Shown: positions 7,287 through 61,514 of the stretch, in pieces
Numbering within the stretch: position 1 is the stretch's first letter
Layout: every line of letters begins with the position of its first letter
Virus record (IMG/VR): IMGVR_UViG_3300032268_001078
Span: 115,716-179,715 of that record
Source of the DNA: a virus
DNA: 64,000 nucleotides
Reading direction: 5' to 3' (one strand)
The notes under the pieces: model-generated
Database searches by the model: none
Told to the model about the DNA's origin: nothing
Seen by the model: only the letters and a program-made list of their open reading frames with translations
Program-made: the position numbers and the translations under genes

Positions 7287-8975
7287 TTAAACTACATCTA
7301 AATCCGCTACTAAGATTTTTCCGTAGTAATCAGGACGGATCATTTTCTTAGCGTATCTTGTCATTATCCCCTTGCGTGGAGTGAAGGTTTCAGGATCGTA
7401 GATAAGAGGAGTCATAATCAATGGAACATATGGAGCATAAACTGCACCAGTTTCCAAGAATTGACCACCTTTATAACCTAATAAAATTGTGTTATCTTTG
7501 AAGTATGGGTTTTTGTAAACTTTGTAACGACCGTTGATAGCACCAATCTTTTGAACACCAAATGCATATTTCATTGTTTCAGCATCAGTATTGTCAGCTG
7601 CAAATCCTGGAATTGATTCCAAAATAGTAGCTACTGCTGGAGAAATAACCATGAAATTAGCACCACCACGTAAAGTTCTTTGGTGGATGATGTTAGAGAT
7701 TTTTTGCAATTTGATTCCTAAAGTTTGGAACCAAGACATTTGGTTGTAGTAAACACCAGCTGTGTTACTTACAAATGCGTTTTGAGCTGCGTTGATTTGG
7801 TTACCAACTTTTGCAGACCAAAATTCAGTTGTAGCTGCACCTTGCAACAACATACCTAAAATTTCAAGATCAATTTCCATTGAAATTTGTTCAGACAACA
7901 ATGAAGTTAATTCAGCTTCAGCATCCAAGTTTTGGTATGCGTTCAAGTCTTGAGCAAATTCAGGAGTCCATTGAGCTTTCATTTTACGAGTTTCAGCAGT
8001 AATACTGTCAGAACGTAATTTGATGTTGATTTCAGGGAAAACAATACTTGTGTTTGATTGAGCATTAGGAAAAGCTAAACCACTATTGCCATCTTCAAAA
8101 TCACCAGCATTGAATGGGTTTACTGTAGTTTCTTTAAAGAAGTAAGCAATACCAGCAGTACCGGCAGAAGCAGTAGCAGCTACACCAGTAGCAGAAGCAG
8201 TTACATACCAATAAACATTTCCGTCAGCTTTAATATTAGTTAATTCAGCCAATACAGTATTTGGAGTAGTTCCAGAACCACTGATGTACCAAGCAGAAAT
8301 TGCAGATAAATCAGCAATAACACCAGAACCAGTAAATGCACTTGAAGCAGAAACTTCAAAGATTTGACCAGCAGCTAAAGAAGCTGTATAACGAGCATCA
8401 AAATTTAATTTAGCGAAATCACCAACTGTAGTTTGAGATAAAGTTTTAGCTTTCAAAGTAACAGAAGCTGAAAATTCGTTACGAGTGTAACCATAACGAC
8501 CTTGACCATAGTAACCACCTTCAGCTAAGTTACTGAAGTTACTGTTACCAAATCCAGGTGCTGGTGTACCATATAAAGAATCACCACTAGAGAAAGGAGC
8601 TTTATTAGTTCCATATTGGAAATCCAAATAGAAGATAAGTCCTGAAGGCATAGACATAGGTTGTACGCTAACAAATTCTTTAGCTACAACTTGACCAAAG
8701 ATCTTACGAATCATTGGTAAAGCAACACCAGCCCATTGGTAACCGTTACCAACCTGGAAACCAGATGCTGGTGAACTTTGAGGGCCTGATGTATTAGTTT
8801 CAACGATAAGTTGTTTAGCTTGGTTTTCCAACAACATAGACATATTAGTCTTGTCATATCCACTCAAACCTTCCAACAAACCAGATTTACCCCATTTGCC
8901 TGCTAAACGAGCTGCGTCGTTTTGCAAAGACTGCCATGGGTTAGCAGATTCGAGGAGTTGATTAATTGTACTCAT
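7287..8975 (-). CDS. gp23: Major capsid protein (T4 gp23-like)
   Basis: KWGKSGLLEGL, VSVQPMSMPSGLIFYLDF, RKMKAQWTPEFAQDLNAY, EIDLEIL, FYTPRKG-type end (FTPRKGIMTRYA). Confidence 0.95.
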   Translation of the reverse strand: MSTINQLLESANPWQSLQNDAARLAGKWGKSGLLEGLSGYDKTNMSMLLENQAKQLIVETNTSGPQSSPASGFQVGNGYQWAGVALPMIRKIFGQVVAKEFVSVQPMSMPSGLIFYLDFQYGTNKAPFSSGDSLYGTPAPGFGNSNFSNLAEGGYYGQGRYGYTRNEFSASVTLKAKTLSQTTVGDFAKLNFDARYTASLAAGQIFEVSASSAFTGSGVIADLSAISAWYISGSGTTPNTVLAELTNIKADGNVYWYVTASATGVAATASAGTAGIAYFFKETTVNPFNAGDFEDGNSGLAFPNAQSNTSIVFPEINIKLRSDSITAETRKMKAQWTPEFAQDLNAYQNLDAEAELTSLLSEQISMEIDLEILGMLLQGAATTEFWSAKVGNQINAAQNAFVSNTAGVYYNQMSWFQTLGIKLQKISNIIHQRTLRGGANFMVISPAVATILESIPGFAADNTDAETMKYAFGVQKIGAINGRYKVYKNPYFKDNTILLGYKGGQFLETGAVYAPYVPLIMTPLIYDPETFTPRKGIMTRYAKKMIRPDYYGKILVADLDVV

Positions 8976-9002: not shown

Positions 9003-10385
9003 TTATTTAATTCCAGCTAGTTTTTGCATTCTTGAAATTTGATCATCAGCTTTAATAATTGGTTGGCTTGCTGGGCGACCACCGATTACTTTACTAGCAA
9101 ATGATGTTTTATTTTCTGTTAAAGCTTTTTTGTTAGATGATTTTTTGATAGTTGTTTTCAAAATTTCATAAACATTTTTAGCTTCGTTTAATGATGTAGC
9201 TTTATCAAAAGAACTAACTACATTTACTTTTTGACCTTCAGTTAAACTGTTTGCTTTGAAAATACGATTAACGTAAATCAATTTAGCGTTTAATAAATTA
9301 ACTTCGTTTAATTGACCACGAAGAGTTCTGATGGTACGAATGGCTTCTTTCAATTCTTCTTCTTTAGATTCATCTACATCACCTTTCATCATTTTTTTCT
9401 TTTCCATCATAGCTTTGATTTTAGATTTCATAGCTTCTTTCATGTCATCTTCTTCTTCTTTAATTACTTTAGGTCCTTTATATTTACCTTTCATAGTAAT
9501 TGCAGCAAGATTCTTTTGAGGAGCTACTCCACCTGATGTTCCAGCTTTTTTAGCTTCGTCCATTTCTTTTGGTTCACCTTTGTAACCTTTACGTTGTTTC
9601 ATAGCTTCGTAAAGAGAATAAAGTTCTTCTAATTCTTCTTCTTCAGATTTTTTCTTTTTAGGTTTAGATTTAGATTTTTTGTCTTCTTCACCTTCTTCTT
9701 CACCTTCTTCTTCAGTTTCTTCACCTTCCATTTCACCACCTTCAGCGTCAAAGTTGAAATCCATGTTCATGTCTTCTTCACCTCCCATGTCTTCCATGCC
9801 TTCTTCACCACCTAAACCAGCAGCTTCAAGTTCAGCTCTGATGATTTTTTTAAGTTCATCAACTGTAACTTCACCAATTCCTTCACTTCCTGAAGCAGCT
9901 TCATTTTCCATGTCGAACATTTCGTTCATCATGTCTTCTTCTTCATTTACTTCTTCACCTTCTTTTTCAAGTTCACGTAAGATTTCTTCAAGATCAAAGT
10001 TTTCTTCCATTCCTTCTTCTTCGGAAAGTTCAGAATCCATTTCATACACAGAACCATCACCATCCATGTCTTCTTCTTCAAGAGCATTAAATAATTCTTC
10101 TAAGTCGATTTCTTCTTCAAGACTAGTGTTGTCATCAGGATCATAATCCATTCCTTCTTCTACTTCATTTTCTTCATTCATAGAAATTAGATCTAAATTA
10201 CGATCTGAATTGTAAATTTCTTCCATCTCATCTTTTTCATCATCTCTCATACGTTTTTCAAACATAGCTGAAATACGTGGTGCAAATGATTCTTCAAGAG
10301 AGGCTTTTGCATTGGCAACGGCAGCTTCACGTAGAGCTTTAGCGTCAGCAATGGCTTCTTCGAATAATTTTTTGTTATTTGACAT
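9003..10385 (-). CDS. gp22: Prohead core scaffold protein (T4 gp22-like), highly acidic
   Basis: Lies between protease and MCP. N-terminus EAIADAKALREAAVANAK, long Glu/Asp-rich tract, C-terminal LNEVNLLNAKLIYVN...RMQKLAGIK, many LxE sites. Confidence 0.8.
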   Translation of the reverse strand: MSNNKKLFEEAIADAKALREAAVANAKASLEESFAPRISAMFEKRMRDDEKDEMEEIYNSDRNLDLISMNEENEVEEGMDYDPDDNTSLEEEIDLEELFNALEEEDMDGDGSVYEMDSELSEEEGMEENFDLEEILRELEKEGEEVNEEEDMMNEMFDMENEAASGSEGIGEVTVDELKKIIRAELEAAGLGGEEGMEDMGGEEDMNMDFNFDAEGGEMEGEETEEEGEEEGEEDKKSKSKPKKKKSEEEELEELYSLYEAMKQRKGYKGEPKEMDEAKKAGTSGGVAPQKNLAAITMKGKYKGPKVIKEEEDDMKEAMKSKIKAMMEKKKMMKGDVDESKEEELKEAIRTIRTLRGQLNEVNLLNAKLIYVNRIFKANSLTEGQKVNVVSSFDKATSLNEAKNVYEILKTTIKKSSNKKALTENKTSFASKVIGGRPASQPIIKADDQISRMQKLAGIK

Positions 10386-10526: not shown

Positions 10527-11159
10527 TTATCTTATACAACAAACTCCGGTTTGGCTACAAATAATATCTGTAACTAACGAATGGATTTTATTGTAAGGAT
10601 TAGTATTTGTATTATAATTATAATTTTTAGATTCATTTAATCCACCTACTGGTCTCATATAAGCACCATGTGTAGATGGCGTACTTACAAAATCCCAACA
10701 AACTAAATCAAAATCATCTTGTACTTCAACTGTGTTTTCATTCATGGGTGTTGTTGAACCCATTCCACGAGATGAAATACCTACTGTAATATTATTTAAA
10801 AATAAATGTTTTAAAATATTTCCTGAAGGAGTATCTAAAACTTCTATGCGACCAAATAAATCATCACCGTCCCACCATAATTTTTGAATATTATGACAAA
10901 CATTTTTAAGATTAATTACTGATGATTCAGGATGATCTAATTCTCCTAATGCTCTATTTTGAGCAATAGGTCCTTGAATGTATTTTGCAACTTCTCTTTC
11001 TAGAATTCCTTTAGGGTAAATACGGCCATTTTCATTTTTAGCATTAGCCCGTTGTACAATACCTTCTACAATTAAATTTTTAGAAGGATTCATCCTTGCC
11101 TCATGTAAATTTTGGGCAATAGGTTTAAAAGGAATATATTCTATTAAAATTTGAGACAT
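10527..11159 (-). CDS. gp21: Prohead protease (T4 gp21-like, S77)
   Basis: NENGRIYP, ALGELDHP, LDTPSG, GISSRGMGS, WDFVSTPS motifs. Confidence 0.95.
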   Translation of the reverse strand: MSQILIEYIPFKPIAQNLHEARMNPSKNLIVEGIVQRANAKNENGRIYPKGILEREVAKYIQGPIAQNRALGELDHPESSVINLKNVCHNIQKLWWDGDDLFGRIEVLDTPSGNILKHLFLNNITVGISSRGMGSTTPMNENTVEVQDDFDLVCWDFVSTPSTHGAYMRPVGGLNESKNYNYNTNTNPYNKIHSLVTDIICSQTGVCCIR

Positions 11160-13935: not shown

Positions 13936-15900
13936 TTAACTAGGAGACATAATGTTGTTTTCACTTAACAAACCATCATCGTCTTTTGATTCAAATAAGT
14001 TTATTTTTCTCATTCCACTTAAACCACTCAACATATTTTTATTTTGAAGATAAACAGTTTGGGTACTTTCTAATGCTAAAGGTGAACCACCTTTATATTG
14101 TGTTTTTCCAAGTTTATTTTCACCTTCTTCTGGAGCTGAGTATTCTTTGCGGCCTAAGCGATCTTTCCCAAATGGACTATCTTGAGTATCAATAACACTA
14201 GATTTCTTTTCAGGTCTACCAGGTAACCTAACTTTATTAGGTTGATTTTCATCATATCCTGTTGGTACTTGTTCTGGTGCTTTTGGAGGTCCTGTATAGC
14301 GACCTGGTCCATATATTGTTGCTAATATATGAGGTGTACCATATGCTTGTCCTGTTTCTGCTGGATCGTTTCCTTCTTCTTCTACTTGTTTTAATCTAAA
14401 TAAGCGTTTTTTATCTTCAATTACTAAATCTCTCATTTCATCTACTTCATCTTCACTAAAATGAAATACATTATCATAAATCCAATCACTAGGCATTAAG
14501 CCAGATTCTTGAACTGATTTAGCTAAGTCAACTTTTTCTTTCCATAATGCAACTCTTTCTTGATCATAGATAATACTTGGTGTAGTTAATGAAAGTTCAA
14601 AATTTGCTAATGCTTCTCCATCGTATCCTTGAACATATAAATGAACCAACGCAATTTTTGTAAGTTCACTTACTAATATTCGTTGTAAACGTTCTACTGT
14701 ACGAGCAAATCTAATGTCTTCAGCAGCTAATGTAGCTTTACCGGTTAAATCTTTTTCATAACCCATAAATGCTTTAGGAACTTTAAGAGCGGCAAATAAT
14801 TTGTCTCTTAAATATTCTACATCTGTAATACCATCATAGTTTAATCCAGGAACATTATCAATTCTAGTAGTTGTATCATTACCACGAACTGGAATATAAT
14901 AATCTTCCATCATATTTTGAACATTATATTTTAAATTATATTGGCCTGTTTGGTTATCCACAAATGGAGTTTTTTTCAATTTACTAACCATTTGTTGCAT
15001 ATAATTGTCTACTTCTGCTGGAGGAATAGCACCAATATTAATATAAAATAATCTTCTGTCTGGAGCGCGAGTAATTCTATGAATTAACATAGCATCTTCC
15101 ATCAACATATATTGTTTAAATAATTTACGAGCAGGCTCTAAATAACTTCTACCATAAGGTAAATAGTTAACATCACTTAATAATCTAAAGTGAGCCATTT
15201 CATAATTTTCAAAATAAATTCCTTCTTCTACATCTTTATTTCCATAACTAGCCCAACCTGCTGCACTAGAAGCACCAGATCCAGCTGCTGGATCATATTT
15301 AAATCTAACATAAGATGGATTGTCTAATTTAATACCTTCTTCTCTTAAAATATTAAAACTACTAAATGGAATAACATTATAAACACCAAATTTTTCAGCA
15401 ATTTCTAATTTTAAATAAAAATCACCGTATTTAAACATGTTTCTAGCCCATGACCATAAATTAAATTCAACATTCAATACATCATAAAACAAGTTATAAA
15501 GAATTTTTTGAATATTTTCATCACTAGAACGAATATGAAGCATTTCTCCACTTTCATTTCGTAAAGTACACTCATCTGCTAAAATATCTAATGCTGATGC
15601 TACAATAGCATCACTATCCATTGCTTCATAATCAGAATATAATTGAGGTCTGATTGAAGGATAATTAATAGCGGTTTGACCAGCATATGCTGCTACTCCT
15701 GATGTGGTGTAAATTCTATTGAATCTATCTACTACAGAGTTAGTTTGAAGTACCCCCTGAGATTGGATTCTATCAGTATCAATTACTTTTAGTTGATCTC
15801 CTCCTACATTTCGTATTACTACGTCTGCTGAGAATAATTTCTTTAATCTTCCAAATATACCTGTGGTAGGTGTTTGTGGATTTATTTGTTGTTCTGCCAT
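13936..15900 (-). CDS. gp20: Portal protein (T4 gp20-like)
   Basis: GRSYLEPARK, LMEDAMLIHRITRAPDRRLFYINIG, MMEDYYIPVRG, YLRDKLFAALKVPK. Confidence 0.95.
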   Translation of the reverse strand: MAEQQINPQTPTTGIFGRLKKLFSADVVIRNVGGDQLKVIDTDRIQSQGVLQTNSVVDRFNRIYTTSGVAAYAGQTAINYPSIRPQLYSDYEAMDSDAIVASALDILADECTLRNESGEMLHIRSSDENIQKILYNLFYDVLNVEFNLWSWARNMFKYGDFYLKLEIAEKFGVYNVIPFSSFNILREEGIKLDNPSYVRFKYDPAAGSGASSAAGWASYGNKDVEEGIYFENYEMAHFRLLSDVNYLPYGRSYLEPARKLFKQYMLMEDAMLIHRITRAPDRRLFYINIGAIPPAEVDNYMQQMVSKLKKTPFVDNQTGQYNLKYNVQNMMEDYYIPVRGNDTTTRIDNVPGLNYDGITDVEYLRDKLFAALKVPKAFMGYEKDLTGKATLAAEDIRFARTVERLQRILVSELTKIALVHLYVQGYDGEALANFELSLTTPSIIYDQERVALWKEKVDLAKSVQESGLMPSDWIYDNVFHFSEDEVDEMRDLVIEDKKRLFRLKQVEEEGNDPAETGQAYGTPHILATIYGPGRYTGPPKAPEQVPTGYDENQPNKVRLPGRPEKKSSVIDTQDSPFGKDRLGRKEYSAPEEGENKLGKTQYKGGSPLALESTQTVYLQNKNMLSGLSGMRKINLFESKDDDGLLSENNIMSPS

Positions 15901-18783: not shown

Positions 18784-18819
18784 ATATATAATATAATAAA
18801 TTTTTAATTAAAAACCAAA

Positions 18820-26007: not shown

Positions 26008-26328
26008 TTATTTTTCTCTTATTAATAACTCTCCTAACACCTCTAAACGTCCAACTTCTCGTTGAAATTCAATTGGTGTCATATTTAATGATATTTTTTT
26101 TAATGTTTGTTCAAATTCCTTTTCAGCAACTTCTTTATTAAATTTGCTTTCAGTAGCTTTTTTATAGTAAGGAGCTTTAACTTTAAAGTGATGCCATGTT
26201 AATAAAGCTAAACCACCTTTTTCTTTAGCATTTGAAGCTATTTTAGCAGCACCTTCACCACGTTTTTTGGCAAACTCTTCAAAAGTTTCTTTCTTTATTT
26301 CTAATAATAATTTTATCAAGTTTATCAT
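26008..26328 (-). CDS. Basic putative internal head protein
   Basis: MINLIKLLLE propeptide-like N-terminus. Confidence 0.5.
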   Translation of the reverse strand: MINLIKLLLEIKKETFEEFAKKRGEGAAKIASNAKEKGGLALLTWHHFKVKAPYYKKATESKFNKEVAEKEFEQTLKKISLNMTPIEFQREVGRLEVLGELLIREK

Positions 26329-27212
26329 TATCTACCTACAAGAAGAGATGTTTTAGTGCTATCAGGTTGGCCAGACATATCTGGATTATAATTTGGATTT
26401 CTTTGTTTATATCCTACTAACGGCGTTGAACGTCCTGAACTATCAATAACCTTAATTGTTATTTGTCTGTTTTTAATAGTAGGAAGTAATTTTTTCAAAA
26501 ATTCAACAAAGTCTCTTCTATCAGGGAATAATTCAGCTATGTCTCTTTCTTCAGAGTTTTTATTAACATTATATAAATAGTATCCTGATTTTAATTCAAT
26601 AGGACCCTTAACCTTTTGAGAGTATTTTAATTCAACATATGGTTTTAAGAATCTAAATACAGATACTTTGTATGTTGTAGATTTTTCTATTTTAGTACCG
26701 TCTTCTTGATCATATATTTTAGTTCTTGTTATATAGACATTATTATATCTGTCTTTCTCATCTACTTTAATTTTCTTAAATATTAAATCTTTATCTGCAC
26801 CTGTAGTTAAATCACCAAATTCTGAAGTGTCTCCAAGATCAAAAACATTGTCATTTGGTTCAACTTCTGGTGTTGTTACTTTTTTAGTTACATCACCCCT
26901 TAATGGAATTAAAATTCCTGCTTGTTTTAAGTCAGGAATAAAAGCTCTATTAATAGCTTGTCTACTAGTATAACCAAAAACAGTCATTAAATCAGTAGAC
27001 GTTAAAAAATCTTTATATTGAAGTTTTTCTAAACCTGATTTTAGTGTTTTATATCCTCTAGATGAGTTGTATTGATGAGTATTTTGAAAGTTAGTTGCTT
27101 TTGTTTCCCAATCATCTGCCAAAGTAAACATTTCTGTCATTCTAGGCATTTCTTCTAGATTGCGTCTTACAGCTTCATTTAGTACTTTTACTATAAATTT
27201 TTTAATATCCAT
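26328..27212 (-). CDS. Hypothetical putative internal head protein
   Basis: MDIKKFIVKVLNE...NLEE N-terminus; degenerate FDLGD motif. Confidence 0.5.
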   Translation of the reverse strand: MDIKKFIVKVLNEAVRRNLEEMPRMTEMFTLADDWETKATNFQNTHQYNSSRGYKTLKSGLEKLQYKDFLTSTDLMTVFGYTSRQAINRAFIPDLKQAGILIPLRGDVTKKVTTPEVEPNDNVFDLGDTSEFGDLTTGADKDLIFKKIKVDEKDRYNNVYITRTKIYDQEDGTKIEKSTTYKVSVFRFLKPYVELKYSQKVKGPIELKSGYYLYNVNKNSEERDIAELFPDRRDFVEFLKKLLPTIKNRQITIKVIDSSGRSTPLVGYKQRNPNYNPDMSGQPDSTKTSLLVGR

Positions 27213-29247: not shown

Positions 29248-29826
29248 TTATTGTATTTTTTCTTTCTGTAATTTAATCCAATCTTTTACTTCTTTAACAT
29301 GTTCTGGTGTTAAACTATTTCCAGTCCATTCATTTACTTCACCGTCTTCAGTTAAAGTTTTACTAAATCCTAATTTAATAAAATCATCAAATTCCATTTC
29401 TATATTATTTAACATTTGATTTAAATTATTAGTATGTAAGTTTTTAGCATATTCTTCAAATTTACCTTCTAACTTTAAATTACTTTCCATTTTAGCAATA
29501 CATGTAGGACATTTATGTAGTAAATTATACATGTATTTTACATAATCACTTTTGTGATTTAATAGTCCATTACATTCAGGACAAGTAAGAGGCATATTAA
29601 ATTGTTTTTTAAACTTACTTAATTTAGGAATACTTCTTTTAATACCATTTTTAATAGTCCAAGTTTTACCTTGTTCTTCCCATGTGTCTCCTTCTTTTCT
29701 TTGAATATTATTTTCATAACCTATTTGACTTTGTGTTTTATCGCCATGTTTTTTCATAACAATATTTCGCATTCTTTGTACTTCACGCTCAGTAAACTGG
29801 CGATTTAGTAATGTTTCTTTATTCAT
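29248..29826 (-). CDS. Hypothetical zinc-finger protein
   Basis: CPEC and CPTC pairs. Confidence 0.55.
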   Translation of the reverse strand: MNKETLLNRQFTEREVQRMRNIVMKKHGDKTQSQIGYENNIQRKEGDTWEEQGKTWTIKNGIKRSIPKLSKFKKQFNMPLTCPECNGLLNHKSDYVKYMYNLLHKCPTCIAKMESNLKLEGKFEEYAKNLHTNNLNQMLNNIEMEFDDFIKLGFSKTLTEDGEVNEWTGNSLTPEHVKEVKDWIKLQKEKIQ

Positions 29827-32252
29827 AACTCGTATTTGTGTAATTTTTCTATTGATTCTTTTGAATTTTCTGGGTTGTTTTTTATTCCTATCCCACCAGC
29901 TTGAGTAAATTCTGTTGTGTTTTTACTCATATCATCTATTAAGATATAACCTTCTTTAGCTTCTGTGTGTTTATCTTTTGCTTGTTTAAATACTCTGCGA
30001 TTTTGTGGAATAGATGTATGTTTATTTAACCATTCATTTTTACCTTTTTTAGCGTCTCCATTAGGATCTAAACCAGGACTTGATAATACCCAAACTTCAA
30101 TACCATTTTTAGGAGCCATTTTCATAACATAATTATAAAGTTCTTTTCCTCCAGGATTCCAATTCATTCCTGACCAGTATGTATCTGTTCCTTTGTTAAT
30201 TATATCCCAAGCTTTTTTAGCGCCATATTTTCCAATGTATTCTTTAAAATCTAATTTTTCGTCATTGTATTTTTTAAACTGCTCGTCAAAATCAGCTAAT
30301 ACTCCATCTAAATCAAAGTAAATTCTTGTAATTTTTGGATTTTTTTTTTCATTTAATTTAGGAGTATTGTCATGTCCACATTTATGACACACATACATAT
30401 CTTTTCCTCCATCTTTCTTTTTCCAAGTCCAACCACAATTATCACAAGTTATAGTTTTTTTTGTTTCAGATTCGTTTAACACACCAATTTTATAAATGTC
30501 TGGGTTTTGTTTGCCATAGTCTCTCATAATAATACCAGCAATACTATTAGCATCATTTTCATGGTCACTGCCTGTTTCACCACTATTTGGTTTAAGTAAA
30601 CCTATTTCATTTTGTTTAGCATGAACTAATTCATGAGCTAATGTTCTATAAATGTCAACAATATTCCTATTAGAAGGATTAATGAGTATATGATGATCAA
30701 AGGGAACATAAGCCCCAAAGCTAGGTTGTTCCTCTCCGAATTCGTATCGGATTTCCAACGTTGGCGGGTTTTGAATTTGGAGTTCTTGACAGGCATAAGA
30801 CATAAAATTATTTAAAAGTGATTGGATATTATCTTGAGATGATTCATTCAATGAAATTGTTTTATCAATCAACTCATTTTTTAAATCATTCAATTTATCT
30901 AAATAACCTGTGTTTCTTAAATCTTTAAATGCTAAATTTTCAACTGAGTATTCTCCGTTTTTATCTAATCCAGCTTGTCTAAAATTCTTTAAACGTTCTT
31001 GTATTGTTTTTATTTGTTCTATTGATTTTTCAGGATTTTTATTTCCTGTTTTTAATAATTGATTTATTTTTTCTTTAAAAGGACGAGATTTTTTCTTAAT
31101 ATTTCCATCAGGAATATTTATAGCTTCATATTCTGGTTTCTTTTCCCATTTATCATTTAATACTGAATAAACTCCTGTAGATGTGTGTTTTTCATTTAGG
31201 TTTTGAACATAAATTTCTATAGGTTGTTTACCTAGTTTTGGATCATGAGCATTATTCCAATTATTTTTTGCTGAGTCAAACCATTTCTTTACCATTTCTG
31301 GGTTGGGAAATTTATTAAAATCAATAACAATGTGTAAATCTATATCAGATAAATTAGAATAATTGTAATTAGCAGATGAACCTGTTAATACAACATCATC
31401 AAATGGTTCAGGAATATCTAAACCATCCCAAAACATTGTAGCAATTTTTAATAATAATTCTTTAACTTGTGGGTCTAATTTGTCACCATCAAATAACATA
31501 GGATTAAGTTGGTTATTATTTTTATATTCTTCTAACCAAACCCAATTTTTTTCTTTATTATAGTTATTATCCTCTTGTAATGATTTAGGATTAATTGGAT
31601 TTATTTTTAGAATTTTTAAAAAATCATCAAATAATCCTTTATTAATAAGAGATTCAGGCATTAATGCTTTTAAATAATCATATGTGTTGTTATAATCATT
31701 TAAAGCTATTGTATATTCTTTAGTTCCTTTTTGTTGTTTACGTAGTTTATTAAAAGTTTCTTTTAATTTACTTATTGTTCCAACAAATTCAGCTTCACCA
31801 ACGTCTTCTCCATCTTTATCAGTAAAATGATCATTTATAACTTGACTATAAACACGATCACTAAATTTTTCTTGTAGTTTATTTACATACCCATTAGTTG
31901 TTTCTTCTTGAGATCCAGCAACATATGCTTCATTTTCTAAATTAGCAAAAAAGCTAAATAAGTCTTTAATAGGAGATGCATTTTTAGCAATAGCAATTTT
32001 TACCTTTGGATTTGGATTAGATTCTAAATATAAATCCCAAATAGCTTTACTTTGTTGTGGAGTAACATTGTTTTTAGTATCGTTTCCTATTAAAACAATA
32101 ACTTGATTTATATAGTTTTTTCCAGCTAATGATTCAACAGCATTAAAATGTCCTTTATTAGGTGGTTTAAAAGCCCCTGGATAATAACATGATAAAGGAG
32201 GATTTGCTATTTGTTCTCCTATTTGTTTCCCTATTTGTTCTATATTTACCAT
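29823..32252 (-). CDS. Multidomain fusion: HxGH-like cytidylyltransferase fold + pol-beta-type nucleotidyltransferase + HExxH zincin + Zn ribbon + HAD 5'(3')-nucleotidase
   Basis: YPGAFKPPNKGH; LTGSSANYNYSNLSDIDLH; LAHELVH; CDNC...CHKC; IYFDLDGVLADF...LIDD. Confidence 0.8.
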   Translation of the reverse strand: MVNIEQIGKQIGEQIANPPLSCYYPGAFKPPNKGHFNAVESLAGKNYINQVIVLIGNDTKNNVTPQQSKAIWDLYLESNPNPKVKIAIAKNASPIKDLFSFFANLENEAYVAGSQEETTNGYVNKLQEKFSDRVYSQVINDHFTDKDGEDVGEAEFVGTISKLKETFNKLRKQQKGTKEYTIALNDYNNTYDYLKALMPESLINKGLFDDFLKILKINPINPKSLQEDNNYNKEKNWVWLEEYKNNNQLNPMLFDGDKLDPQVKELLLKIATMFWDGLDIPEPFDDVVLTGSSANYNYSNLSDIDLHIVIDFNKFPNPEMVKKWFDSAKNNWNNAHDPKLGKQPIEIYVQNLNEKHTSTGVYSVLNDKWEKKPEYEAINIPDGNIKKKSRPFKEKINQLLKTGNKNPEKSIEQIKTIQERLKNFRQAGLDKNGEYSVENLAFKDLRNTGYLDKLNDLKNELIDKTISLNESSQDNIQSLLNNFMSYACQELQIQNPPTLEIRYEFGEEQPSFGAYVPFDHHILINPSNRNIVDIYRTLAHELVHAKQNEIGLLKPNSGETGSDHENDANSIAGIIMRDYGKQNPDIYKIGVLNESETKKTITCDNCGWTWKKKDGGKDMYVCHKCGHDNTPKLNEKKNPKITRIYFDLDGVLADFDEQFKKYNDEKLDFKEYIGKYGAKKAWDIINKGTDTYWSGMNWNPGGKELYNYVMKMAPKNGIEVWVLSSPGLDPNGDAKKGKNEWLNKHTSIPQNRRVFKQAKDKHTEAKEGYILIDDMSKNTTEFTQAGGIGIKNNPENSKESIEKLHKYEL

Positions 32253-32269
32253 TACTCAATTAATAAATA

Positions 32270-33049
32270 TTACTCTAATTTAGTTGTTATAGGTAATGTT
32301 TCAAATAATGGTTTATTATTTGGATTTTCAAGAGAAAATATTTCATAAATATTCTTAAACATTTGAAAATAATTATCAATTGATTTATCTGGTTCAACTA
32401 TTTCCCAACCTTCTCCTTGTAATTTACCATCTTTTGCTTTTCTTTTTGATGATTTTAACCACAATAATCCTACTTTTTCAATTTTATTTTCACTTATTTC
32501 ATTCCAAGCTTTAGCATATGCTGATAATTGTAAATTATATGAAGTATGTAATGAATTTGATGTTTTAATGTCTAAAATCCATAATTTATCTTGAATTTTA
32601 ACAATCAAATCACACGTTCCTGCATATTTGTGTTCATGAGATAATAAATGAATTTCACTAGCTACTAGTTCTGGTTTATGAGTATTCCAAAAATCACTAA
32701 ATTTTAAAATCATTTTCCATACATCTAAACTGTATTTTGCTGTTCCATTTTCATCCATCCATTTTAATTCTTCACCTTGTAAGAAATTTTCAATAGCATT
32801 GTGAACAGCTGTTCCTTCTTCACTTGCTTTTCTAACAATAATATCACTATTGTGTGAAACATCTTTTAACCAATTTTCAAAAAATTTATTTTTTGGATAA
32901 AAATTTAATATAGATGTTACAGATGGATAAAATTCTCCAGTTTCTGTTTTATAAAATCTACTATCTAAAAAATTTATTTGTTCTCCTTGATGTTCTACTA
33001 TACGTTTTAAATAAGGATGTTTGTAAATATTATCGTTTTTTTGTATCAT
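32270..33049 (-). CDS. Cas4-like PD-(D/E)xK exonuclease
   Basis: YPSVTSIL, GTAVHNAIE, YAGTCDL, DIKTS, QLSAYA. Confidence 0.85.
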   Translation of the reverse strand: MIQKNDNIYKHPYLKRIVEHQGEQINFLDSRFYKTETGEFYPSVTSILNFYPKNKFFENWLKDVSHNSDIIVRKASEEGTAVHNAIENFLQGEELKWMDENGTAKYSLDVWKMILKFSDFWNTHKPELVASEIHLLSHEHKYAGTCDLIVKIQDKLWILDIKTSNSLHTSYNLQLSAYAKAWNEISENKIEKVGLLWLKSSKRKAKDGKLQGEGWEIVEPDKSIDNYFQMFKNIYEIFSLENPNNKPLFETLPITTKLE

Positions 33050-33972: not shown

Positions 33973-33990
33973 TATTAATAATATAATAAA

Positions 33991-34446
33991 TTAACTTGGA
34001 AGAACCAAATCTTTTCTAAAAAAATGTCCAGAAATATTATCATTAAAACTAAGTGGATCTTCTAAAACATTGTATTTAAATAAATACTTCAATTCAGTGT
34101 ATGTTTGAATTTTCTTATTGGGGCAAATCGCTAAAATTTCTCTTTTAAAGTTGTTTTTACCTTCTGCTTTAACATAAGTTAAGAATTCTTTACTAGAACC
34201 CCAATAGTCTTTCCAAGTACTTTCTTTAGTAACAATTTTAGTTGATGGTTTTCTACCTCTTCCAGTTTGTTCTAATAATTCTTTTTTACCAAGTTTTTGT
34301 TTGGTATTATTAAATAAAATCTTTTTTCCAATATAATATCGATTTGATGTCTTATGTGTAATTTTATACACGAAACCAAACGAATCTTGAGGAAAATCGT
34401 CAACTGTATTGTAACATTTTAGTTCATTTTTAAATTCGTACCACAT
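33991..34446 (-). CDS. Short GIY-YIG nuclease (Seg-like); start reassigned to ATG 34446
   Basis: GFVYKITH...YYIGKK, WKDYWGSS, REIL, YTELKY; TAATG overlap at 34446. Confidence 0.75.
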   Translation of the reverse strand: MWYEFKNELKCYNTVDDFPQDSFGFVYKITHKTSNRYYIGKKILFNNTKQKLGKKELLEQTGRGRKPSTKIVTKESTWKDYWGSSKEFLTYVKAEGKNNFKREILAICPNKKIQTYTELKYLFKYNVLEDPLSFNDNISGHFFRKDLVLPS

Positions 34447-34844
34447 TACCAATCCATTTTAATTATAAAAGTCATATCTGTATTATTTGATAAAGGAACA
34501 GGTTGAGCCATTTTAGCTATTGCTAAAAGTTGATTTGAATCATTGTATAAACCTATTACTGATATGTATGGACTAAAATCTGATCCAGTAGCAAAGTTTT
34601 TTATTTGTGTGTCTGGTTGAGTATAGTAACTACTTGTATATGGTGTTGGAAGTACACTACCTGTAACCCAATCAGATCCAGATAAATACACATAACCTGT
34701 TGATCCTGTAGTTAAAGTTGGATTGTAACTTGTGTTAAATTCATAGTCTTTAACAACACATTTTATAGTTTGTTCATAAACAGGATAAGTGTTATTTATC
34801 TGTAAATTATATATACTGCTGGTATTTACTGTGAATAATGCCAT
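34446..34844 (-). CDS. Tail/baseplate structural protein
   Basis: YISVIGLYNDSNQLLAIAKMAQP, paralogous to the C-terminus of 35551-36576. Confidence 0.6.
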   Translation of the reverse strand: MALFTVNTSSIYNLQINNTYPVYEQTIKCVVKDYEFNTSYNPTLTTGSTGYVYLSGSDWVTGSVLPTPYTSSYYTQPDTQIKNFATGSDFSPYISVIGLYNDSNQLLAIAKMAQPVPLSNNTDMTFIIKMDW

Positions 34845-52703: not shown

Positions 52704-54041
52704 TTATCTAATTCCAGCCATTCGTTGAATTCTTTCAAGTAAAGCATTATCAGCATCATCTGCTGTTAAATCACTTCTCATTTGACTAAACATACCTTTC
52801 AACTGATTCATTTGTTGAGGTGTTATTCTATCATTAATAATATTAGTAATTAATTGAATAAATTCATTATTTTCTAATTTATAAATATCTTGTAAAAAAT
52901 CGTCTCTTTCAGCTGGTGTAACATTGGTTTCTAATTTATTAATTACATCTTGTAAACCTTTAGCTATAATTTGACCATAAGCAATATCTTCAGGTTCATT
53001 TTGAATTTTATCAGTATATTTAACTACTTTTTCTCCTCTTTCTAAATCACTAAAACCAAATAAACCAATAATTTCATACATTCCTTTTACAATTTCATGA
53101 ATTAATACTGGAAAACAAATAGCTCTTGCTTTAATAATCCATTTTTCTTTTTCAAAATCAAAATAAACACTTTCAGCTCCTACACTACTATCTTCCATTG
53201 GTGATCCACCCCCTCCTGACATTCCTAACATAAAATCAATCATATCAAGGGCCGCTTGCATTAAATCTCTGTATTTATCACTTGCACCTTCTCCACTAAC
53301 AATATCAACATATTCTTGTTGAACATAATGAGCTGTTTTACTTAAACTTGCTCCACCTTGAGTTACAGAATTAATAAGTCTTCTTTTCATTAATTCACCT
53401 GTTAATTCTTCAGCTTCATCTTCTTCTTCTTCATCCATTTCAGGTGTATTTAAAGCATCTTTAACTTGAGATTGTGGAACTATTTTAGCATCAATTTCAA
53501 TAGCATCAGTTTGTGCTAAATAAGGATAAGCTTCATTAACAACATCTAAAGCTAGTTGTTCTAATAAATCTTCGTTTCCTTTTTCCATTTGCATTACTTG
53601 CATAGCAAGTTGTTGCATTTGTCTTCCTACTTGCATTGGATTTTTACCTTGAATCCTTTGAGCAACTCCACCTTTAAGTTTACCTAAAGTTTCAGGATCA
53701 AAAATTTTATCATACTCAGCTTCATTTAATTTATCAAATTCAGCCTTATATCTAGCTACAATTTTATTCATAATACTATTTGAAGCTTCTTTCATTCCAG
53801 CTGGTTTTGGTTTTGGACCGTTTTTAGGAGCCTGATGTGGTTTTTCTGTTCCTTTAGTTTGAGCTTTAGGAGCTGGTTTAGGACTAGTAGCTGGACTTGG
53901 AACAGAACGTCTTCTAGGTTCTGGTCTTGTAGAAGGTCTTCCTGGCATTACATCCGGTTGAGGAGCTTTTCCTGGTTGTTCCTGAGGAGCTCTTTGTGGA
54001 GCAGCAGGACTTTCATTTAAAAGATTTTTAAGCTTAATCAT
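52704..54041 (-). CDS. Putative internal head protein with Pro-rich N-terminus
   Basis: MIKLKNLLNE N-terminus; KRRLINSVTQGG and FPVLIHEIVKG core; C-terminal RIQRMAGIR. Confidence 0.6.
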   Translation of the reverse strand: MIKLKNLLNESPAAPQRAPQEQPGKAPQPDVMPGRPSTRPEPRRRSVPSPATSPKPAPKAQTKGTEKPHQAPKNGPKPKPAGMKEASNSIMNKIVARYKAEFDKLNEAEYDKIFDPETLGKLKGGVAQRIQGKNPMQVGRQMQQLAMQVMQMEKGNEDLLEQLALDVVNEAYPYLAQTDAIEIDAKIVPQSQVKDALNTPEMDEEEEDEAEELTGELMKRRLINSVTQGGASLSKTAHYVQQEYVDIVSGEGASDKYRDLMQAALDMIDFMLGMSGGGGSPMEDSSVGAESVYFDFEKEKWIIKARAICFPVLIHEIVKGMYEIIGLFGFSDLERGEKVVKYTDKIQNEPEDIAYGQIIAKGLQDVINKLETNVTPAERDDFLQDIYKLENNEFIQLITNIINDRITPQQMNQLKGMFSQMRSDLTADDADNALLERIQRMAGIR

Positions 54042-54229: not shown

Positions 54230-55222
54230 TTATTTATAAGGATCTAAAATATAACCATCTTCCATTTTATTTTGTACCATATTAATAGAAAATTTACTAA
54301 TATATTCACTATTATCTTTCTTAAGTAAAACACTATTACCTTCAAAACCTACTATATAATAACTAGATTCAGAACTTATCACTCCAGGTTCAATAGTATC
54401 TCCTTTACCTAAATAAATAATATTAGGGTTAAAGTCTTTAGCCATTTCTAAATCATCTGGTGTTAATTCAAATTTTTCATTTACTTTATCTAAAATTTTA
54501 ACATCAACTTGTAAGTCTTCCCATTCATTTTCCCAAGGTGATTCATAATAATCTTCAGGTATATCTTCAATAACTTCATCACCTTCTAGTATTTTTCTCA
54601 TTAAAAAATCACTATCCCATAGATTATCATAAATAATTGATTCAATTTCTTCTGGGTTATAAGGAATAGACATTCCTAATTCTCTTTCTAAATCTTCACT
54701 ATTAATTATACATTTAGTCGTTTTTTCAATTAAATCATTCTCTTCATCTTCATAATTATAAAAATTATATGTTGAATGACTTATTATTTCAATATTAAAA
54801 TCTTGGAAATGTTTAGCTAATTCTAAATCTTCGTCTCCTAAAGAAAATTCTTCTTCTTTTAATTTAGGTTTAGGTAAAATTATTTTATGTCCATTTGAAA
54901 GCATTTTTTGAACATCATCAAGATCCATTTTAAATACATTACGTGGCTCACCTTCTTCAACTAAATTTATTTTCCAAACAGCAACACCATTTTTATCTTC
55001 TTGATATATTTTTTGAACAATAAAATTACCATTTCCTATGTATCTGTAAATTATATCTGGATTTTTAAACATATTGGCATTGATTTTACTGCCTTTTGTT
55101 ATGTTTTGATTTTGAAGACCCTTAGCTAATTCTAAATCGTTATCTCCTAAAGAAAATTCTTCTTGTTCATTTAAGAATAATTGATATTCTTTCCATTTAT
55201 GTAAGTCAAAGTTGTCTCTCAT
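54230..55222 (-). CDS. Acidic three-module repeat protein (start probably ATG 55222)
   Basis: Three F(S/E)L(G/T)xxDLExAK motifs, each preceded by LNE, LKE or VNE. Confidence 0.75.
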   Translation of the reverse strand: MRDNFDLHKWKEYQLFLNEQEEFSLGDNDLELAKGLQNQNITKGSKINANMFKNPDIIYRYIGNGNFIVQKIYQEDKNGVAVWKINLVEEGEPRNVFKMDLDDVQKMLSNGHKIILPKPKLKEEEFSLGDEDLELAKHFQDFNIEIISHSTYNFYNYEDEENDLIEKTTKCIINSEDLERELGMSIPYNPEEIESIIYDNLWDSDFLMRKILEGDEVIEDIPEDYYESPWENEWEDLQVDVKILDKVNEKFELTPDDLEMAKDFNPNIIYLGKGDTIEPGVISSESSYYIVGFEGNSVLLKKDNSEYISKFSINMVQNKMEDGYILDPYK

Positions 55223-55608
55223 TTTGTTTTTCCCCAAGTTTTACCTTTACCTTTTCTTTTACATCCAGCTGGAGTAGGTCTACAAGCAGGATACTTTGAT
55301 CTTACTTCACCTTTTTTTCTTCCACAAGCTTTATAACCTCCTTTTCCATCAGGAGCATTACAATCTACCCAACCACCTTCTTTACCTTTTGGACCTGAAC
55401 GTTTAAACCACTTATGAAGCGATTCATCTTCATTAACTGTTTCTTCAGAAATTCCTTTCCAAATTTCACCTCTACGACATCTAACTACAGCACCTGACTT
55501 ATAAGCTGATGGTTTGTCAAACTTACGATCAGCAATTCGAAGACATCTGTCTCGTTTTGATTTTTTTTCAGTAAGAACTTCTGTTAATATATTTGTAAGT
55601 TTAATCAT
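55219..55608 (-). CDS. Small basic Cys-containing protein (two mini-domains)
   Basis: MIKLTNILTE; PSAYKSGAVVRC; VNE junction; LHKWF...WVDC...CGR...YPACRP. Confidence 0.65.
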   Translation of the reverse strand: MIKLTNILTEVLTEKKSKRDRCLRIADRKFDKPSAYKSGAVVRCRRGEIWKGISEETVNEDESLHKWFKRSGPKGKEGGWVDCNAPDGKGGYKACGRKKGEVRSKYPACRPTPAGCKRKGKGKTWGKTK

Positions 55609-55846
55609 TTATAGGTTCCCACCAATTAGTACAATATTCATCAGCTGCATAAGGAATTTTATTTGTACCTGCCCAATCACTGTAATAAGTACTTGTACAA
55701 ATTTGTTCTTCTTTATTCCAAAATTTACAATTAGCACAACAAGAACCTCCTTTAGGTACTTTTAAACCGGCTTTATGGGTTGGAGGTAAAATCATTTCAC
55801 CTTTACCACCATAGTTTTCTGTTAATATGTTTGTAAGTTTAATCAT
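55601..55846 (-). CDS. Small Cys-rich (metal-binding) protein; start reassigned to ATG 55846
   Basis: MIKLTNILTE; CCANC...C...CTNW. Confidence 0.65.
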   Translation of the reverse strand: MIKLTNILTENYGGKGEMILPPTHKAGLKVPKGGSCCANCKFWNKEEQICTSTYYSDWAGTNKIPYAADEYCTNWWEPIND

Positions 55847-55847
55847 A

Positions 55848-56237
55848 TTACCATTTTCTACAAGACCAATAGTTTGCTTTATGGCGAGGACCTGGATTAT
55901 CACAATGGTGTCTTGCTCTATAAGCTGCTCTTCGTTTAGGATTATTTTTCTTAATAACCATTCGTTTACCTTTAGCACTTTTGCCTCCAAAACCAAAATT
56001 TACTTTAACTACTTTACCTTTAGGATTTTTAACATATACCTTAAATTTTTTGATGTCACCTTGCATAGGTTTACCTAATTGTACCTTACGACCTTTGTAT
56101 TCTGCTTCACGTAAACAAGAATCACAATCAGTAGATTTATATTCTCTCATAAATTGAATAAACGATCTAACATCATCAATGTTTTCAACATCGTATTCTT
56201 CAATTTCATTATTAATAAGTTCAGTTAATTTTATCAT
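55848..56237 (-). CDS. Small basic protein of the AEYxGRKV...RARHxC...YWSCxKW family (recalled as widespread in T4-like cyanophages)
   Basis: AEYKGRKVQLGKP...KKFKVYVKNPKGKVVKVNFG...YRARHHC...YWSCRKW. Confidence 0.7.
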   Translation of the reverse strand: MIKLTELINNEIEEYDVENIDDVRSFIQFMREYKSTDCDSCLREAEYKGRKVQLGKPMQGDIKKFKVYVKNPKGKVVKVNFGFGGKSAKGKRMVIKKNNPKRRAAYRARHHCDNPGPRHKANYWSCRKW

Positions 56238-57937
56238 CTGTTATAAATATTAGGTTCAATCATATATTCTGGTTTTAATAAATAATTAATATTTTCTATG
56301 TCGATATTAATTTCATTTCCATTTTCAGTATTTAAATAAACATAATTATCTTCAATCATAGAAATTGTCCAATTTTCATCACGATTATCAATAAAATTTT
56401 CTAAGTCAGGATTATTTGGATTCCACATATTAGGAGTAATTTGGTTACCTACTTCTAAGTATTTAATAACTTTTAAACCATTAGTTAATCCAATATCTTC
56501 AGGACCCATTTCAAAAGTTTCGTTTATATTATTTTCTAAATAAGCATCAAAATCACCAATTAATTCTTTATTAGTTATATTTAAATATGGTTCCATATCT
56601 CCATAATCATACATATCTAACATGTATTCTTTAATATTGTCTAATTCAAAATTAGCTTTAATTAAAATAGGAACAGCCCATTCTTTAAATTCTTCATATG
56701 TTTCTCCTGTCCAATTTTCTTCATCTAAACCTTTAGCCAGTTCTAAATCTTCATCACCCAACTCAAATGTTTCCTCTAAATCATTTTTACTAGGAATATA
56801 AGCATTTATATTATTCATAAGATCTTTATTAAAATAATCTACAGTAAAAGTATAAACATTCTCAGGACGCATAGCAAACTCAAATGCTACTATTTCATCA
56901 TCATAATAAACAAGTTCTTTATACTGGCCTTCATTTGGACCTATGTAAATAATTTTTTTAACAAGACTACGTATACGTGAAGGAGCATCTTCTAATTTTG
57001 TCCAAGCACCAGCATATTCAGGATTAGAACTATCATAAAAATAGTCTCCTACTTTAAGTTCACGTTTATTAAAATCTTTAGCTAGTTCTAAATCTTCATC
57101 TCCTAATTCAAAGTCTTCATTAACTCGATTTAAAGGTTTAATTAAATCAACAGTAACTTCCATTTCATCAAGATTCCAAGCATCTTGAGGAAATTTAGAC
57201 CAATTAATAGGATTAAATACTTTATAAGCTTTATCTTGAATCCACTCTTCAATAAGATGACTACTCCACAAATCAGCAGGTTGCCCAAGTTCCTCATAAG
57301 CTAATTCTATAAGACTTTCATAAAGTGTCTCTATAAAAGCTTTGTCTTTTAATTTACTAGGAATTTCATCTGCAGCATAAGTTTCATATGGACTGTATTT
57401 ATCAATTAATTCTACTAATTCATCAACACTATAGTGAAGTCTATAAGTAGTTTCATGATCAGGTACACTTGGAAATGCTTTAGAATCACTATTCCAATTA
57501 TAAATAAGATGAACGTCTACTTGTACTTCAGGTTCATCATTAAGTTGTTTTGCCAATTTTAAATCTTCATCTCCAAGTTCAAATGACTCGTCTATGGGTT
57601 CTGCTTCAATTCGAAATTCAGGTTTTAAATAACCATTAATTTCATGTAAATCAAAATCAAATTCATAGCCAGTTTGTTGTTGTAAAGTAATAAATTCTCC
57701 ATCTTCATCTGTGTCTATATTTAAAATATATAAGGATTTATCTTGAAAATTAGGATCAAATGACTCACCCCACATTTCAGGCTCAATAGTGTCACCTTGT
57801 GTTAAAAATTTAACATTTAAACCTTTAGCCAGTTCTAAGTCTTCATCACCCAATTCAAATTCTTCATTTATGATTTTTGAATTTCTAGTAACTTTGTTTT
57901 CAATAAGAAATTTTTTAATGTCAAAATTGTTTTTCAT
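56234..57937 (-). CDS. Acidic five-module repeat protein
   Basis: Five FE(L/M)GxED(L/I)xL motifs preceded by INE, IDE, VNE, LEE and INE. Confidence 0.8.
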   Translation of the reverse strand: MKNNFDIKKFLIENKVTRNSKIINEEFELGDEDLELAKGLNVKFLTQGDTIEPEMWGESFDPNFQDKSLYILNIDTDEDGEFITLQQQTGYEFDFDLHEINGYLKPEFRIEAEPIDESFELGDEDLKLAKQLNDEPEVQVDVHLIYNWNSDSKAFPSVPDHETTYRLHYSVDELVELIDKYSPYETYAADEIPSKLKDKAFIETLYESLIELAYEELGQPADLWSSHLIEEWIQDKAYKVFNPINWSKFPQDAWNLDEMEVTVDLIKPLNRVNEDFELGDEDLELAKDFNKRELKVGDYFYDSSNPEYAGAWTKLEDAPSRIRSLVKKIIYIGPNEGQYKELVYYDDEIVAFEFAMRPENVYTFTVDYFNKDLMNNINAYIPSKNDLEETFELGDEDLELAKGLDEENWTGETYEEFKEWAVPILIKANFELDNIKEYMLDMYDYGDMEPYLNITNKELIGDFDAYLENNINETFEMGPEDIGLTNGLKVIKYLEVGNQITPNMWNPNNPDLENFIDNRDENWTISMIEDNYVYLNTENGNEINIDIENINYLLKPEYMIEPNIYNR

Positions 57938-59050: not shown

Positions 59051-59401
59051 TTATGCTTCAACTTGTTCTTCTACTTTAATCATTTTAGGTCTTCCTAGTT
59101 TATAAGTACCATTTGCTTTCATTTCAGCTATTCTATTTAATTTAATTTGACGAGCTGATGTCTCACTTACAGGTCTACCTAATTGTAATGTACCTTTTAA
59201 AGCTAATCTTTGTTGACGATTTGAATTTTCACTTACAGGTCTTCCTCTTTGAATAATAACACCTGATGCTTTACGTTCTTCTTGTTGTTTTAAACGTAGT
59301 TGACGAGGTGAGTTAGGGTTAACTGGACGACCTTTTTGTTTAACTGCTTCTAATTTAACTTCGTTTACTGTGATTTCTTGGTTTTTAATTTTCTTTGTCA
59401 T
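59051..59401 (-). CDS. AT-hook-like (GRP repeat) basic DNA-binding protein, paralog 1
   Basis: Three GRPVxxxSxRQ units plus a terminal LGRPK. Confidence 0.65.
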   Translation of the reverse strand: MTKKIKNQEITVNEVKLEAVKQKGRPVNPNSPRQLRLKQQEERKASGVIIQRGRPVSENSNRQQRLALKGTLQLGRPVSETSARQIKLNRIAEMKANGTYKLGRPKMIKVEEQVEA

Positions 59402-59474
59402 AACTTTTGTTTTTTGTTTTTATGTTTATTTATTTTTTATACTTATTACACAATTTATTTTATCAAATCCCCTC

Positions 59475-59666
59475 TTATATTTCAAACTTAGTTAAAAGTC
59501 CATCTATATAACAATACACACCCTCCCAACTCTTAATTTCAGTTCCAACTACATAATCATATACTTGTTCAATAAACATTACTCGTTTATCATCTTGTAA
59601 ATCAAAATCATCAGCTAAATGATCTAATTCAAACTTTAAATTATCTATATTTACTTCATTTTTCAT
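59475..59666 (-). CDS. Small acidic hypothetical protein
   Basis: 63-aa ORF directly behind an early-type promoter. Confidence 0.6.
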   Translation of the reverse strand: MKNEVNIDNLKFELDHLADDFDLQDDKRVMFIEQVYDYVVGTEIKSWEGVYCYIDGLLTKFEI

Positions 59667-59826
59667 ACCTATTACACAAACAATTTTATAAAATTCCCCT
59701 TTATATGTGAAAACTAGATTAGTAAACGAGGCACCTTTAGTGTCTCTAAAGCCTAGATCTCAGAAACGAGGCAACCTGGAGAGAGTCTAGAGCTGCTAAA
59801 CGAAGCAAGGCAACTTAACAAATAAA

Positions 59827-59854
59827 CAAAAAAAGGGGAATTAAATCCCCCTTT
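59827..59854 (-). terminator. Intrinsic terminator
   Basis: GGGGA/TCCCC stem followed by a U-tract. Confidence 0.7.
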
Positions 59855-59856
59855 AA

Positions 59857-60114
59857 TCATAACTGAGATAAAACTTGATAATTATGATAACAATCATCAA
59901 CTTCATTTATAAAAACATAATAAATACAGTTTTTAATTTTATAAGATTGATCATTAGTATCTATTAATTTATCAACACTAAGTTTTTTACCTCTTGTTGT
60001 TCTAACTTTTTTATTAATAATTCTTTGAACATCAGATTCACTAATGTAAAATACATTATCAATAATTAATAAATCACACATTACATCTTTAATTGATAGT
60101 TTTATTTTTTTCAT
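59857..60114 (-). CDS. Small hypothetical protein (start reassigned to ATG 60114)
   Basis: MKKIKLSIKD...; the longer ORF-track start runs through the promoter and repeat boxes. Confidence 0.6.
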   Translation of the reverse strand: MKKIKLSIKDVMCDLLIIDNVFYISESDVQRIINKKVRTTRGKKLSVDKLIDTNDQSYKIKNCIYYVFINEVDDCYHNYQVLSQL

Positions 60115-61501: not shown

Positions 61502-61514
61502 TGTATATACTTTT

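Follow-up and report, generated by a model that had tools for sequence, protein, structure and literature searches.

Polyvalent proteins were described by Iyer, Burroughs, Anand, de Souza and Aravind in 2017 (PMC5512222) as single chains of unrelated domains in phages and conjugative elements, built around a zincin metallopeptidase (MPTase) hub with variable cassettes, and they were proposed to be delivered with DNA and processed into separate units. In phage T4, gp21 cleaves after L/I-x-E, and N-terminal targeting peptides of 10-20 residues are removed there (PMC9026906, PMC5694885); replacement of the Glu of the motif by Asp blocks cutting but leaves targeting intact (PMC9026906). Both polyvalent proteins and T4-type targeting and cleavage are already known. 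Here, we describe P0001, an 809-aa open reading frame (ORF) on the minus strand (29823..32252, stop codon included) of a 64-kb window, the whole stretch of DNA that was analyzed, which is the final 64 kb of a 179,715-bp IMG/VR virus record (IMGVR_UViG_3300032268_001078) rated complete. P0001 shares the architecture of polyvalent proteins, and the delivery and processing proposed for them are also part of the interpretation that we favor with moderate confidence, namely that P0001 is a capsid-targeted polyvalent polyprotein that would be cut by the prohead protease and ejected by the phage.

P0001 consists of a short leader and five modules, all on the minus strand. The 13-residue N-terminal leader (32214..32252) ends in I-G-E, lies before strand 1 of a Rossmann fold, with a helix at residues 4-16, and is a candidate capsid-targeting propeptide. 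Module 1 (residues 14-227; 31572..32213) has an NMNAT-like nucleotidyltransferase fold and ends in SLQE; module 2 (residues 228-470; 30843..31571) is a pol-beta-type nucleotidyltransferase (NTase) with a helical C-domain and ends in SLNE; module 3 (residues 471-594; 30471..30842) is a minimal gluzincin ending in VLNE; module 4 (residues 595-635; 30348..30470) is a CxxC...CxxC zinc ribbon ending in KLNE; and module 5 (residues 636-809; 29826..30347), a HAD 5'(3')-deoxyribonucleotidase-like domain, comes last and has no terminal [LI]xE. AlphaFold2, run on an alignment of 35 sequences, gave five folded units separated by segments with a predicted local distance difference test (pLDDT) score below 50 (residues 224-245, 462-474, 588-598, and 631-637), and each of these segments holds one of the four tetrapeptides (SLQE 224-227, SLNE 467-470, VLNE 591-594, and KLNE 632-635). 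A further match in the first linker, LEE at residues 240-242, was not counted as a junction, as [LI]xE is not kept there in most homologues. The total number of [LI]xE sites in the protein is not enriched (11 observed, approximately 9 expected from composition); their placement is, with all four linkers hit by [LI]xE in 0.04% of random placements or sequence shuffles (P value of approximately 4e-4 for P0001 alone). The initial annotation of this locus had reported an LxE at every domain junction, cautioning that LxE is common by chance and that the evidence lay in the positional coincidence, and these results agree with it on both counts.

A search for close homologues returned 120 proteins of 445-1319 aa. 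The junction motif at residue 470 was found in 121/121 sequences and the leader motif at residue 13 in all 117 homologues having the N-terminus (IGE in 115, IAE in 2), with I11 and E13 invariant. At the junctions the L and the E are fixed among the 120 homologues, and N, T, V, K, Q, or D can stand between them. Module borders in these proteins were taken from BLAST breakpoints and direct inspection; borders derived from gap runs in a MAFFT alignment of all homologues were dropped, since this alignment matched unrelated cassettes with one another and left the borders scattered. Directly after SLQE, some homologues insert a DUF5661 module and a helical module, each ending in IEE or LNE, and 0-5 extra cassettes separate the zincin from the terminal HAD module, each ending in [LI]xE if a module stands behind it. 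The zinc ribbon of P0001 is an optional cassette as well, being absent from homologues of 768-778 aa. Terminal modules served as natural controls. The end of the zincin carries [LI]xE in 114/115 proteins in which it is internal and in 0/5 in which it is terminal (Fisher, 3e-8). In one homologue, whose last helical module is followed by a short tail only, the joint reads LND, and one homologue without the HAD module has INK at the joint. Pfam gave no family names for the extra cassettes, and PHROGs returned only phrog_17560 (unknown function), for cassettes with a D-G-x-H-R motif; a ParB-like identity that this motif alone had suggested for them is not claimed. In the homologues P0108, P0110, and P0099, one joint after another has identical residues behind the Glu (S/A-K-Q-S-N, then F or P), and these repeats could serve as microhomology for cassette exchange.

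The same pattern was seen at much greater distance. A superfamily search of 1.8 billion 50%-identity representatives yielded 8,127 relatives at E <= 1e-3, including 1,467 at E <= 1e-30; the proteins reach 2,288 aa, and many of them are giant proteins that open with the NTase followed by the zincin. Among distant proteins at 33-40% identity (50%-identity representatives), the NTase end carries L-S-L followed by x-E in 61/70 internal but 0/7 terminal cases (Fisher, 5e-6), against a background of 0.13 for the motif window, and the middle residue takes 14 values. BLAST similarity breakpoints among the distant proteins are likewise enriched in [LI]xE (20% versus 7%), whereas six control tripeptides, [AG]xE, [LI]xD, [LI]xQ, [ST]xE, and [KR]xE among them, are not. 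In one giant relative inspected over its full length, the [LI]xE rule holds before each ART and zincin module. The rule extends over hundreds of homologues, with internal and terminal modules as controls, in support of the junctions that the initial annotation had noticed. Five distant relatives were scanned for domains, and ART-PolyVal, SLT with LysM and amidoligase, dCMP deaminase, and DUF5661 were found; P0156 has ART-PolyVal at 2.2e-59 in three stretches, and P0151 has the SLT, LysM, and amidoligase domains. Since relatives carry ART-PolyVal, SLT, and similar domains, these are polyvalent proteins in the sense of PMC5512222. The initial annotation had read P0001 as an enzyme polyprotein ejected into the host; ART-PolyVal and SLT domains, known from injected polyvalent proteins, support the injected class, and the junctions fit a polyprotein, but membership of the already known polyvalent class had been missed.

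A protease with the appropriate specificity is encoded in the same window. The phage is T4-like and its host is probably a Bacteroidota bacterium; by capsid protein its nearest cultured relative is Flavobacterium phage immuto (64%), and cultured phages gave no megablast match to 20 kb of the window. Nearly all genes of the window are on the minus strand. Its T4-type head module comprises a Portal_T4 portal (13936..15900), a Peptidase_S77 (T4 gp21-type) prohead protease (10527..11159, minus strand; PF03420 at 8e-33, 114 bits versus a cut-off of 27), an acidic scaffold-like ORF with 18 [LI]xE sites (9003..10385, minus strand), and a Gp23-type major capsid protein (7287..8975, minus strand). The S77 protease, which is the proposed processing enzyme, is 36% identical to T4 gp21, and an LNE|S at its C-terminus aligns with ITE|S of T4 gp21. 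In the capsid protein, an IVE at residue 59 falls close to where T4 Glu65 aligns, and the highest [LI]xE densities of the genome were found in the ORFs between the portal and capsid genes (10 versus 2.3 expected, 18 versus 10.6, and 10 versus 5.7). The prohead protease that the initial annotation had invoked is thus present and of the right kind, and the packaging that it had proposed is matched by a signal, the conserved N-terminal leader ending in IxE. With 13 residues, the leader of P0001 falls within the 10-20 residues of T4 propeptides, and it ends in the cleavage motif. Analogous leaders were also found in distant relatives. Stand-alone NTase homologues with 7-17-residue leaders ending in [LI]xE occur in cyanophages S-B68 and S-CRM01, Caulobacter phage Cr30, Maribacter phage Molly, and a 636-kb metagenomic phage; each of these five records also has a gene for an S77-family protease, and a tblastn search for zincin homologues in them returned none.

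Other genes of the window also carry leaders. Unrelated genes with common 10-14-residue MIKL-type leaders ending in LxE lie at 52704..54041, 55219..55608, 55601..55846, 55848..56237, 26008..26328, and 26328..27212 (minus strand). The small genes clustered at 55219..56237 (and those at 52704 and 26008) have only the leader, of the MIKLTNILTE type, in common, which resembles the internal-protein loci of T4 (PMC3012670), hypervariable in T-even phages, and DUF5872 was the only family that Pfam recognized in the leader-bearing small proteins. This family occurs in a stand-alone 129-aa protein with the leader MIKLTNILTE (55219..55608, minus strand), whose DUF5872 module shares 69% identity with the cassette at the end of the homologue P0012; the same module therefore stands either behind a leader of its own or behind a polyprotein joint. 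Two further proteins, of 330 and 567 aa (54230..55222 and 56234..57937, minus strand), are made of repeated modules, each of which opens with an acidic tag of the type FELGDEDLELAK right after [LIV]xE; they have a common leader type, M-K/R-D/N-N-F-D, contain no zincin, and look like additional polyproteins delimited by LxE. A 121-aa protein encoded two genes downstream of P0001 (28861..29226, minus strand) has six [LI]xE sites versus 1.7 expected, the third-highest density in the genome; ATATTTAT, an upstream motif discussed below, precedes its gene, and no family was found for it.

The initial annotation had listed five domains in this ORF, and each is supported by Pfam, PHROGs, fold comparison, and/or invariant motifs, with weak Pfam matches for the ribbon. 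NT5C was the sole Pfam family above threshold in the 809-aa protein (residues 644-796, 25.5 bits versus a cut-off of 24.8); zincin, NTP_transf_2, CTP_transf_like, and zinc ribbon families matched below threshold, and a profile of the whole protein gave no match against PDB sequences. For the HAD module, PHROGs returned the 5'-3' deoxyribonucleotidase family phrog_2643 (residues 640-798, 2.6e-19) and Foldseek the mouse and human 5'(3')-deoxyribonucleotidases (2jao, 1.5e-4), and DLDGV (motif I) and IDD (motif IV) are conserved. The NTase matches phrog_36119 over residues 244-468 (4.7e-43) and shows the pol-beta signature, with G291-S292 and D303-x-D305 invariant and E346 nearly so; NTP_transf_2 scores 14.3 bits on P0001 (cut-off 21) and 21.3-23 bits on three homologues. 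A substrate for the NTase was not read from Foldseek matches to CD-NTases and aminoglycoside adenylyltransferases, as these matches are weak (E of 4e-3 or worse). In the gluzincin, an HExxH with a downstream Glu is present (H540-E541-x-x-H544 and E565, all invariant), and Pfam DUF6782 reaches 17.9 bits, below its cut-off of 27. Residues 228-594 were also modeled separately (pLDDT 91), which gave a pol-beta NTase core and helical domain followed by a minimal gluzincin, and comparison of the zincin fold (VIA) gave Wss1 at Z 9.1 (root-mean-square deviation 3.3, 103 residues aligned) and the minigluzincins abylysin and selecase at Z 7.7-7.8. The CxxC...CxxC ribbon spans residues 601-625. All members of the family keep the catalytic signatures of the NTase, zincin, and HAD modules unchanged.

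Module 1 differs in this respect. Its fold agrees with the N-terminal nucleotidyltransferase of the initial annotation, as Foldseek matched it to the archaeal NMNAT 1m8f (E of 1.5e-3, TM 0.63 on target) and also to NadD structures, and Pfam CTP_transf_like scores 13.3 bits, under its cut-off of 21. The NKGH variant had been noted there; that both signature motifs are lost in P0001 had not. P0001 and its approximately seven closest relatives have NKGH and GEAEFV where most homologues have HKGH and SGTDFR, so that the sequence matches neither the (H/T)xGH nor the ISxTxxR-type motif. Both nucleotide-binding signatures are gone (residues 27-36 and 148-160; window 31770..31800 and 32150..32170), yet the module is full length, and its sequence indicates that module 1 of P0001 is probably inactive or changed in function.

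The three enzyme types fused in the window are conserved neighbors in distant jumbo phages. In the distant jumbo-phage contigs L010 (7106..7870) and that of P0151, separate genes of the CTP_transf_like and NT5C-like types and a DnaJ-ClpB pair are found in the vicinity of the NTase-zincin polyvalent gene. This neighborhood suggests that the NMNAT-like, NT5C, and polyvalent genes share a nucleotide-related task. L010's stand-alone NMNAT-like gene lacks a leader, so relatives of module 1 are not all candidates for packaging.

Expression timing was approached through upstream motifs. The initial annotation had assigned the P0001 gene a late-type promoter. The window shows no enrichment of the T4 late promoter TATAAATA, and the gene has no copy of it upstream. 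The gene is instead preceded, 10 nt before its ATG, by ATATTTAT (32263..32270, minus strand), a strand-biased upstream motif of the phage's own; the assignment is only partly confirmed. ATATTTAT occurs 72 times on the coding strand and 12 times on the opposite one, with 47 copies no more than 40 nt from a start, sitting 4-27 nt before 47 start codons. It stands before most of the genes for tail, baseplate, and head-accessory proteins and before the leader-bearing genes, and from this pattern late expression of the polyprotein gene is plausible. Two other motifs were observed: G-T-G-T-A-A-T-A-A-G-T-A-T-A before small genes at 59-64 kb (nine copies, all on the coding strand) and T-T-T-A-T-T-A-T-A-T-T-A before primase, thymidylate kinase, and dehydrogenase genes (eight copies). 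The three upstream motif classes (examples at 59400..63900, 18784..18819, and 33973..33990) may represent three temporal promoter classes. Between the tail-side genes and the primase lies a GIY-YIG-type homing-endonuclease-like ORF (33991..34452, minus strand), whose best PHROG is labeled 'NAD synthetase'.

The targeting, cleavage, retention, ejection, and substrates that we infer for P0001 can be set out in four steps. The polyprotein would be synthesized along with the structural proteins, and its short N-terminal amphipathic leader would bring it into the prohead scaffolding core. There, the gp21-type S77 serine protease would cut behind the Glu of each exposed L/I-x-E, taking off the leader and freeing the NMNAT-like, NTase, gluzincin, Zn ribbon, and HAD nucleotidase modules from each other. 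The pieces would then remain in the head, leave with the DNA, and, within minutes of the start of infection, act on nucleotides or on targets modified with them.

Packaging and injection could also be combined with a different processing enzyme, with the embedded gluzincin cutting the L-x-E joints, in cis or in trans, in the head or once injected. Processing by the embedded peptidase is what has been proposed in print for polyvalent proteins (PMC5512222), a rival that the initial annotation had not considered, and several features of the family are consistent with it: NTase and zincin together form the conserved core of the superfamily, the most conserved L-x-E lies directly at the zincin N-terminus, the HExxH and the third Glu ligand are invariant, and the fold matches Wss1/SprT proteases as well as minigluzincins. 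We nevertheless regard it as unlikely. The gp21-type protease is documented to use L/I-x-E (PMC9026906), a motif that in this genome also marks the capsid protein, the scaffold, and the C-terminus of the protease itself. Moreover, LxE-ended leaders are present on the stand-alone NTases in records without a tblastn-detectable zincin homologue, and the LxE-delimited module proteins at 54230..57937 have no zincin.

Several observations weigh against P0001 being a packaged and cleaved protein at all. The fusion was not found in any cultured phage, and every module is also encoded on its own in other phages, presumably as a cytoplasmic protein; stand-alone genes there include those for the NTase, the zincin, and the nucleotidase, the last of which is commonly taken for a cytoplasmic enzyme. 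The polyprotein gene sits among replication genes, adjoining primase and exonuclease genes outside the head module, and ATATTTAT also stands before endonuclease VII, PhoH, and Mre11-like genes, which leaves late timing no more than plausible. The leader of P0001 is unlike the MIKL-type leaders in sequence, and the junctions share residues past the Glu (S/A-K-Q-S-N), possibly as recombination joints. S77 proteases are common in large myoviruses. Their co-occurrence with these proteins is for that reason weak evidence; among ten IMG/VR records with distant polyvalent relatives, S77 was encoded in 4/4 of those that are at least 90% complete. Some of these points, together with the leaderless NMNAT-like gene and the NT5C gene that distant phages keep as separate neighbors of the polyvalent gene, would be accommodated if P0001 were an uncleaved cytoplasmic multi-enzyme made of fused auxiliary nucleotide-metabolism genes, with the L-N-E and S/A-K-Q-S-N joints as a reused flexible linker or shuffling microhomology. 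This alternative is improbable, as a linker convention does not explain a fixed L and E with a free middle residue at 33-40% identity, and it leaves without explanation the lack of enrichment of the control motifs, the loss of the Glu at terminal modules, the match with the motif of the phage's own protease and head-core proteins, and the conserved N-terminal leader ending in the same motif, while relatives bear lysozyme and ART-PolyVal domains typical of injected proteins.

Beyond P0001 as a capsid-targeted polyprotein, a broader proposal can be made, in which our confidence falls somewhat short of even. In phages with a gp21-type protease, the prohead protease may double as a polyprotein processor, and the large polyvalent class (8,127 representatives) may consist of strings of L/I-x-E-ended cassettes, in which inserted modules are packaged, freed, and injected and each joint is both a cleavage site and a recombination point. 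In the literature searched, no junction motif in polyvalent proteins was described, nor a prohead protease as their processor. If the proposal is true, a sequence rule (a leader plus L/I-x-E joints) would predict packed and injected proteins and their cut points for phages with T4-type proteases, and thousands of unannotated giant phage proteins would turn into lists of discrete candidate early effectors. The published view of the embedded metallopeptidase as the processor would need revision, and the exchange of effector cassettes would be explained. The rule would also be usable for loading foreign proteins into such capsids, as has already been done with the T4 targeting sequence.

Compared with known systems, P0001 departs from the polyvalent proteins of PMC5512222 in its processing, for which the embedded MPTase was proposed there, with no junction motif and no link to a prohead protease described. 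Furthermore, pol-beta NTases are reported in that study from conjugative elements only, whereas the core of P0001 combines a different NTase family (phrog_36119) with the zincin and has L/I-x-E at every joint. T4 IPI-III and Alt have in common with the P0001 phage an S77 protease, L/I-x-E, short N-terminal leaders, and diverse small-gene clusters in which only the leader is shared (PMC9026906, PMC3012670). These T4 substrates, however, are single-function proteins trimmed at one or both ends, while the motif in P0001 would split the chain into five or more folded modules, with cassettes swapped between the joints. The ejection and inner-body proteins of phiKZ, 201phi2-1, and SPN3US are similar in that gp21-like proteases cut them after the Glu of a three-residue motif, at several sites per protein, and in that the protease cleaves its own C-terminus (PMC5694885). 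They differ in their S/A/G-x-E motif and in that mostly long propeptides are removed, and no enzyme polyproteins with a site at each joint have been described among them. Finally, polyproteins made by RNA viruses that infect eukaryotes are likewise single products cut into enzymes at short conserved junction motifs. Their proteins and protease are unrelated to those described here, and the cutting of P0001 would take place in the prohead of a DNA phage, with the products delivered to the next cell.

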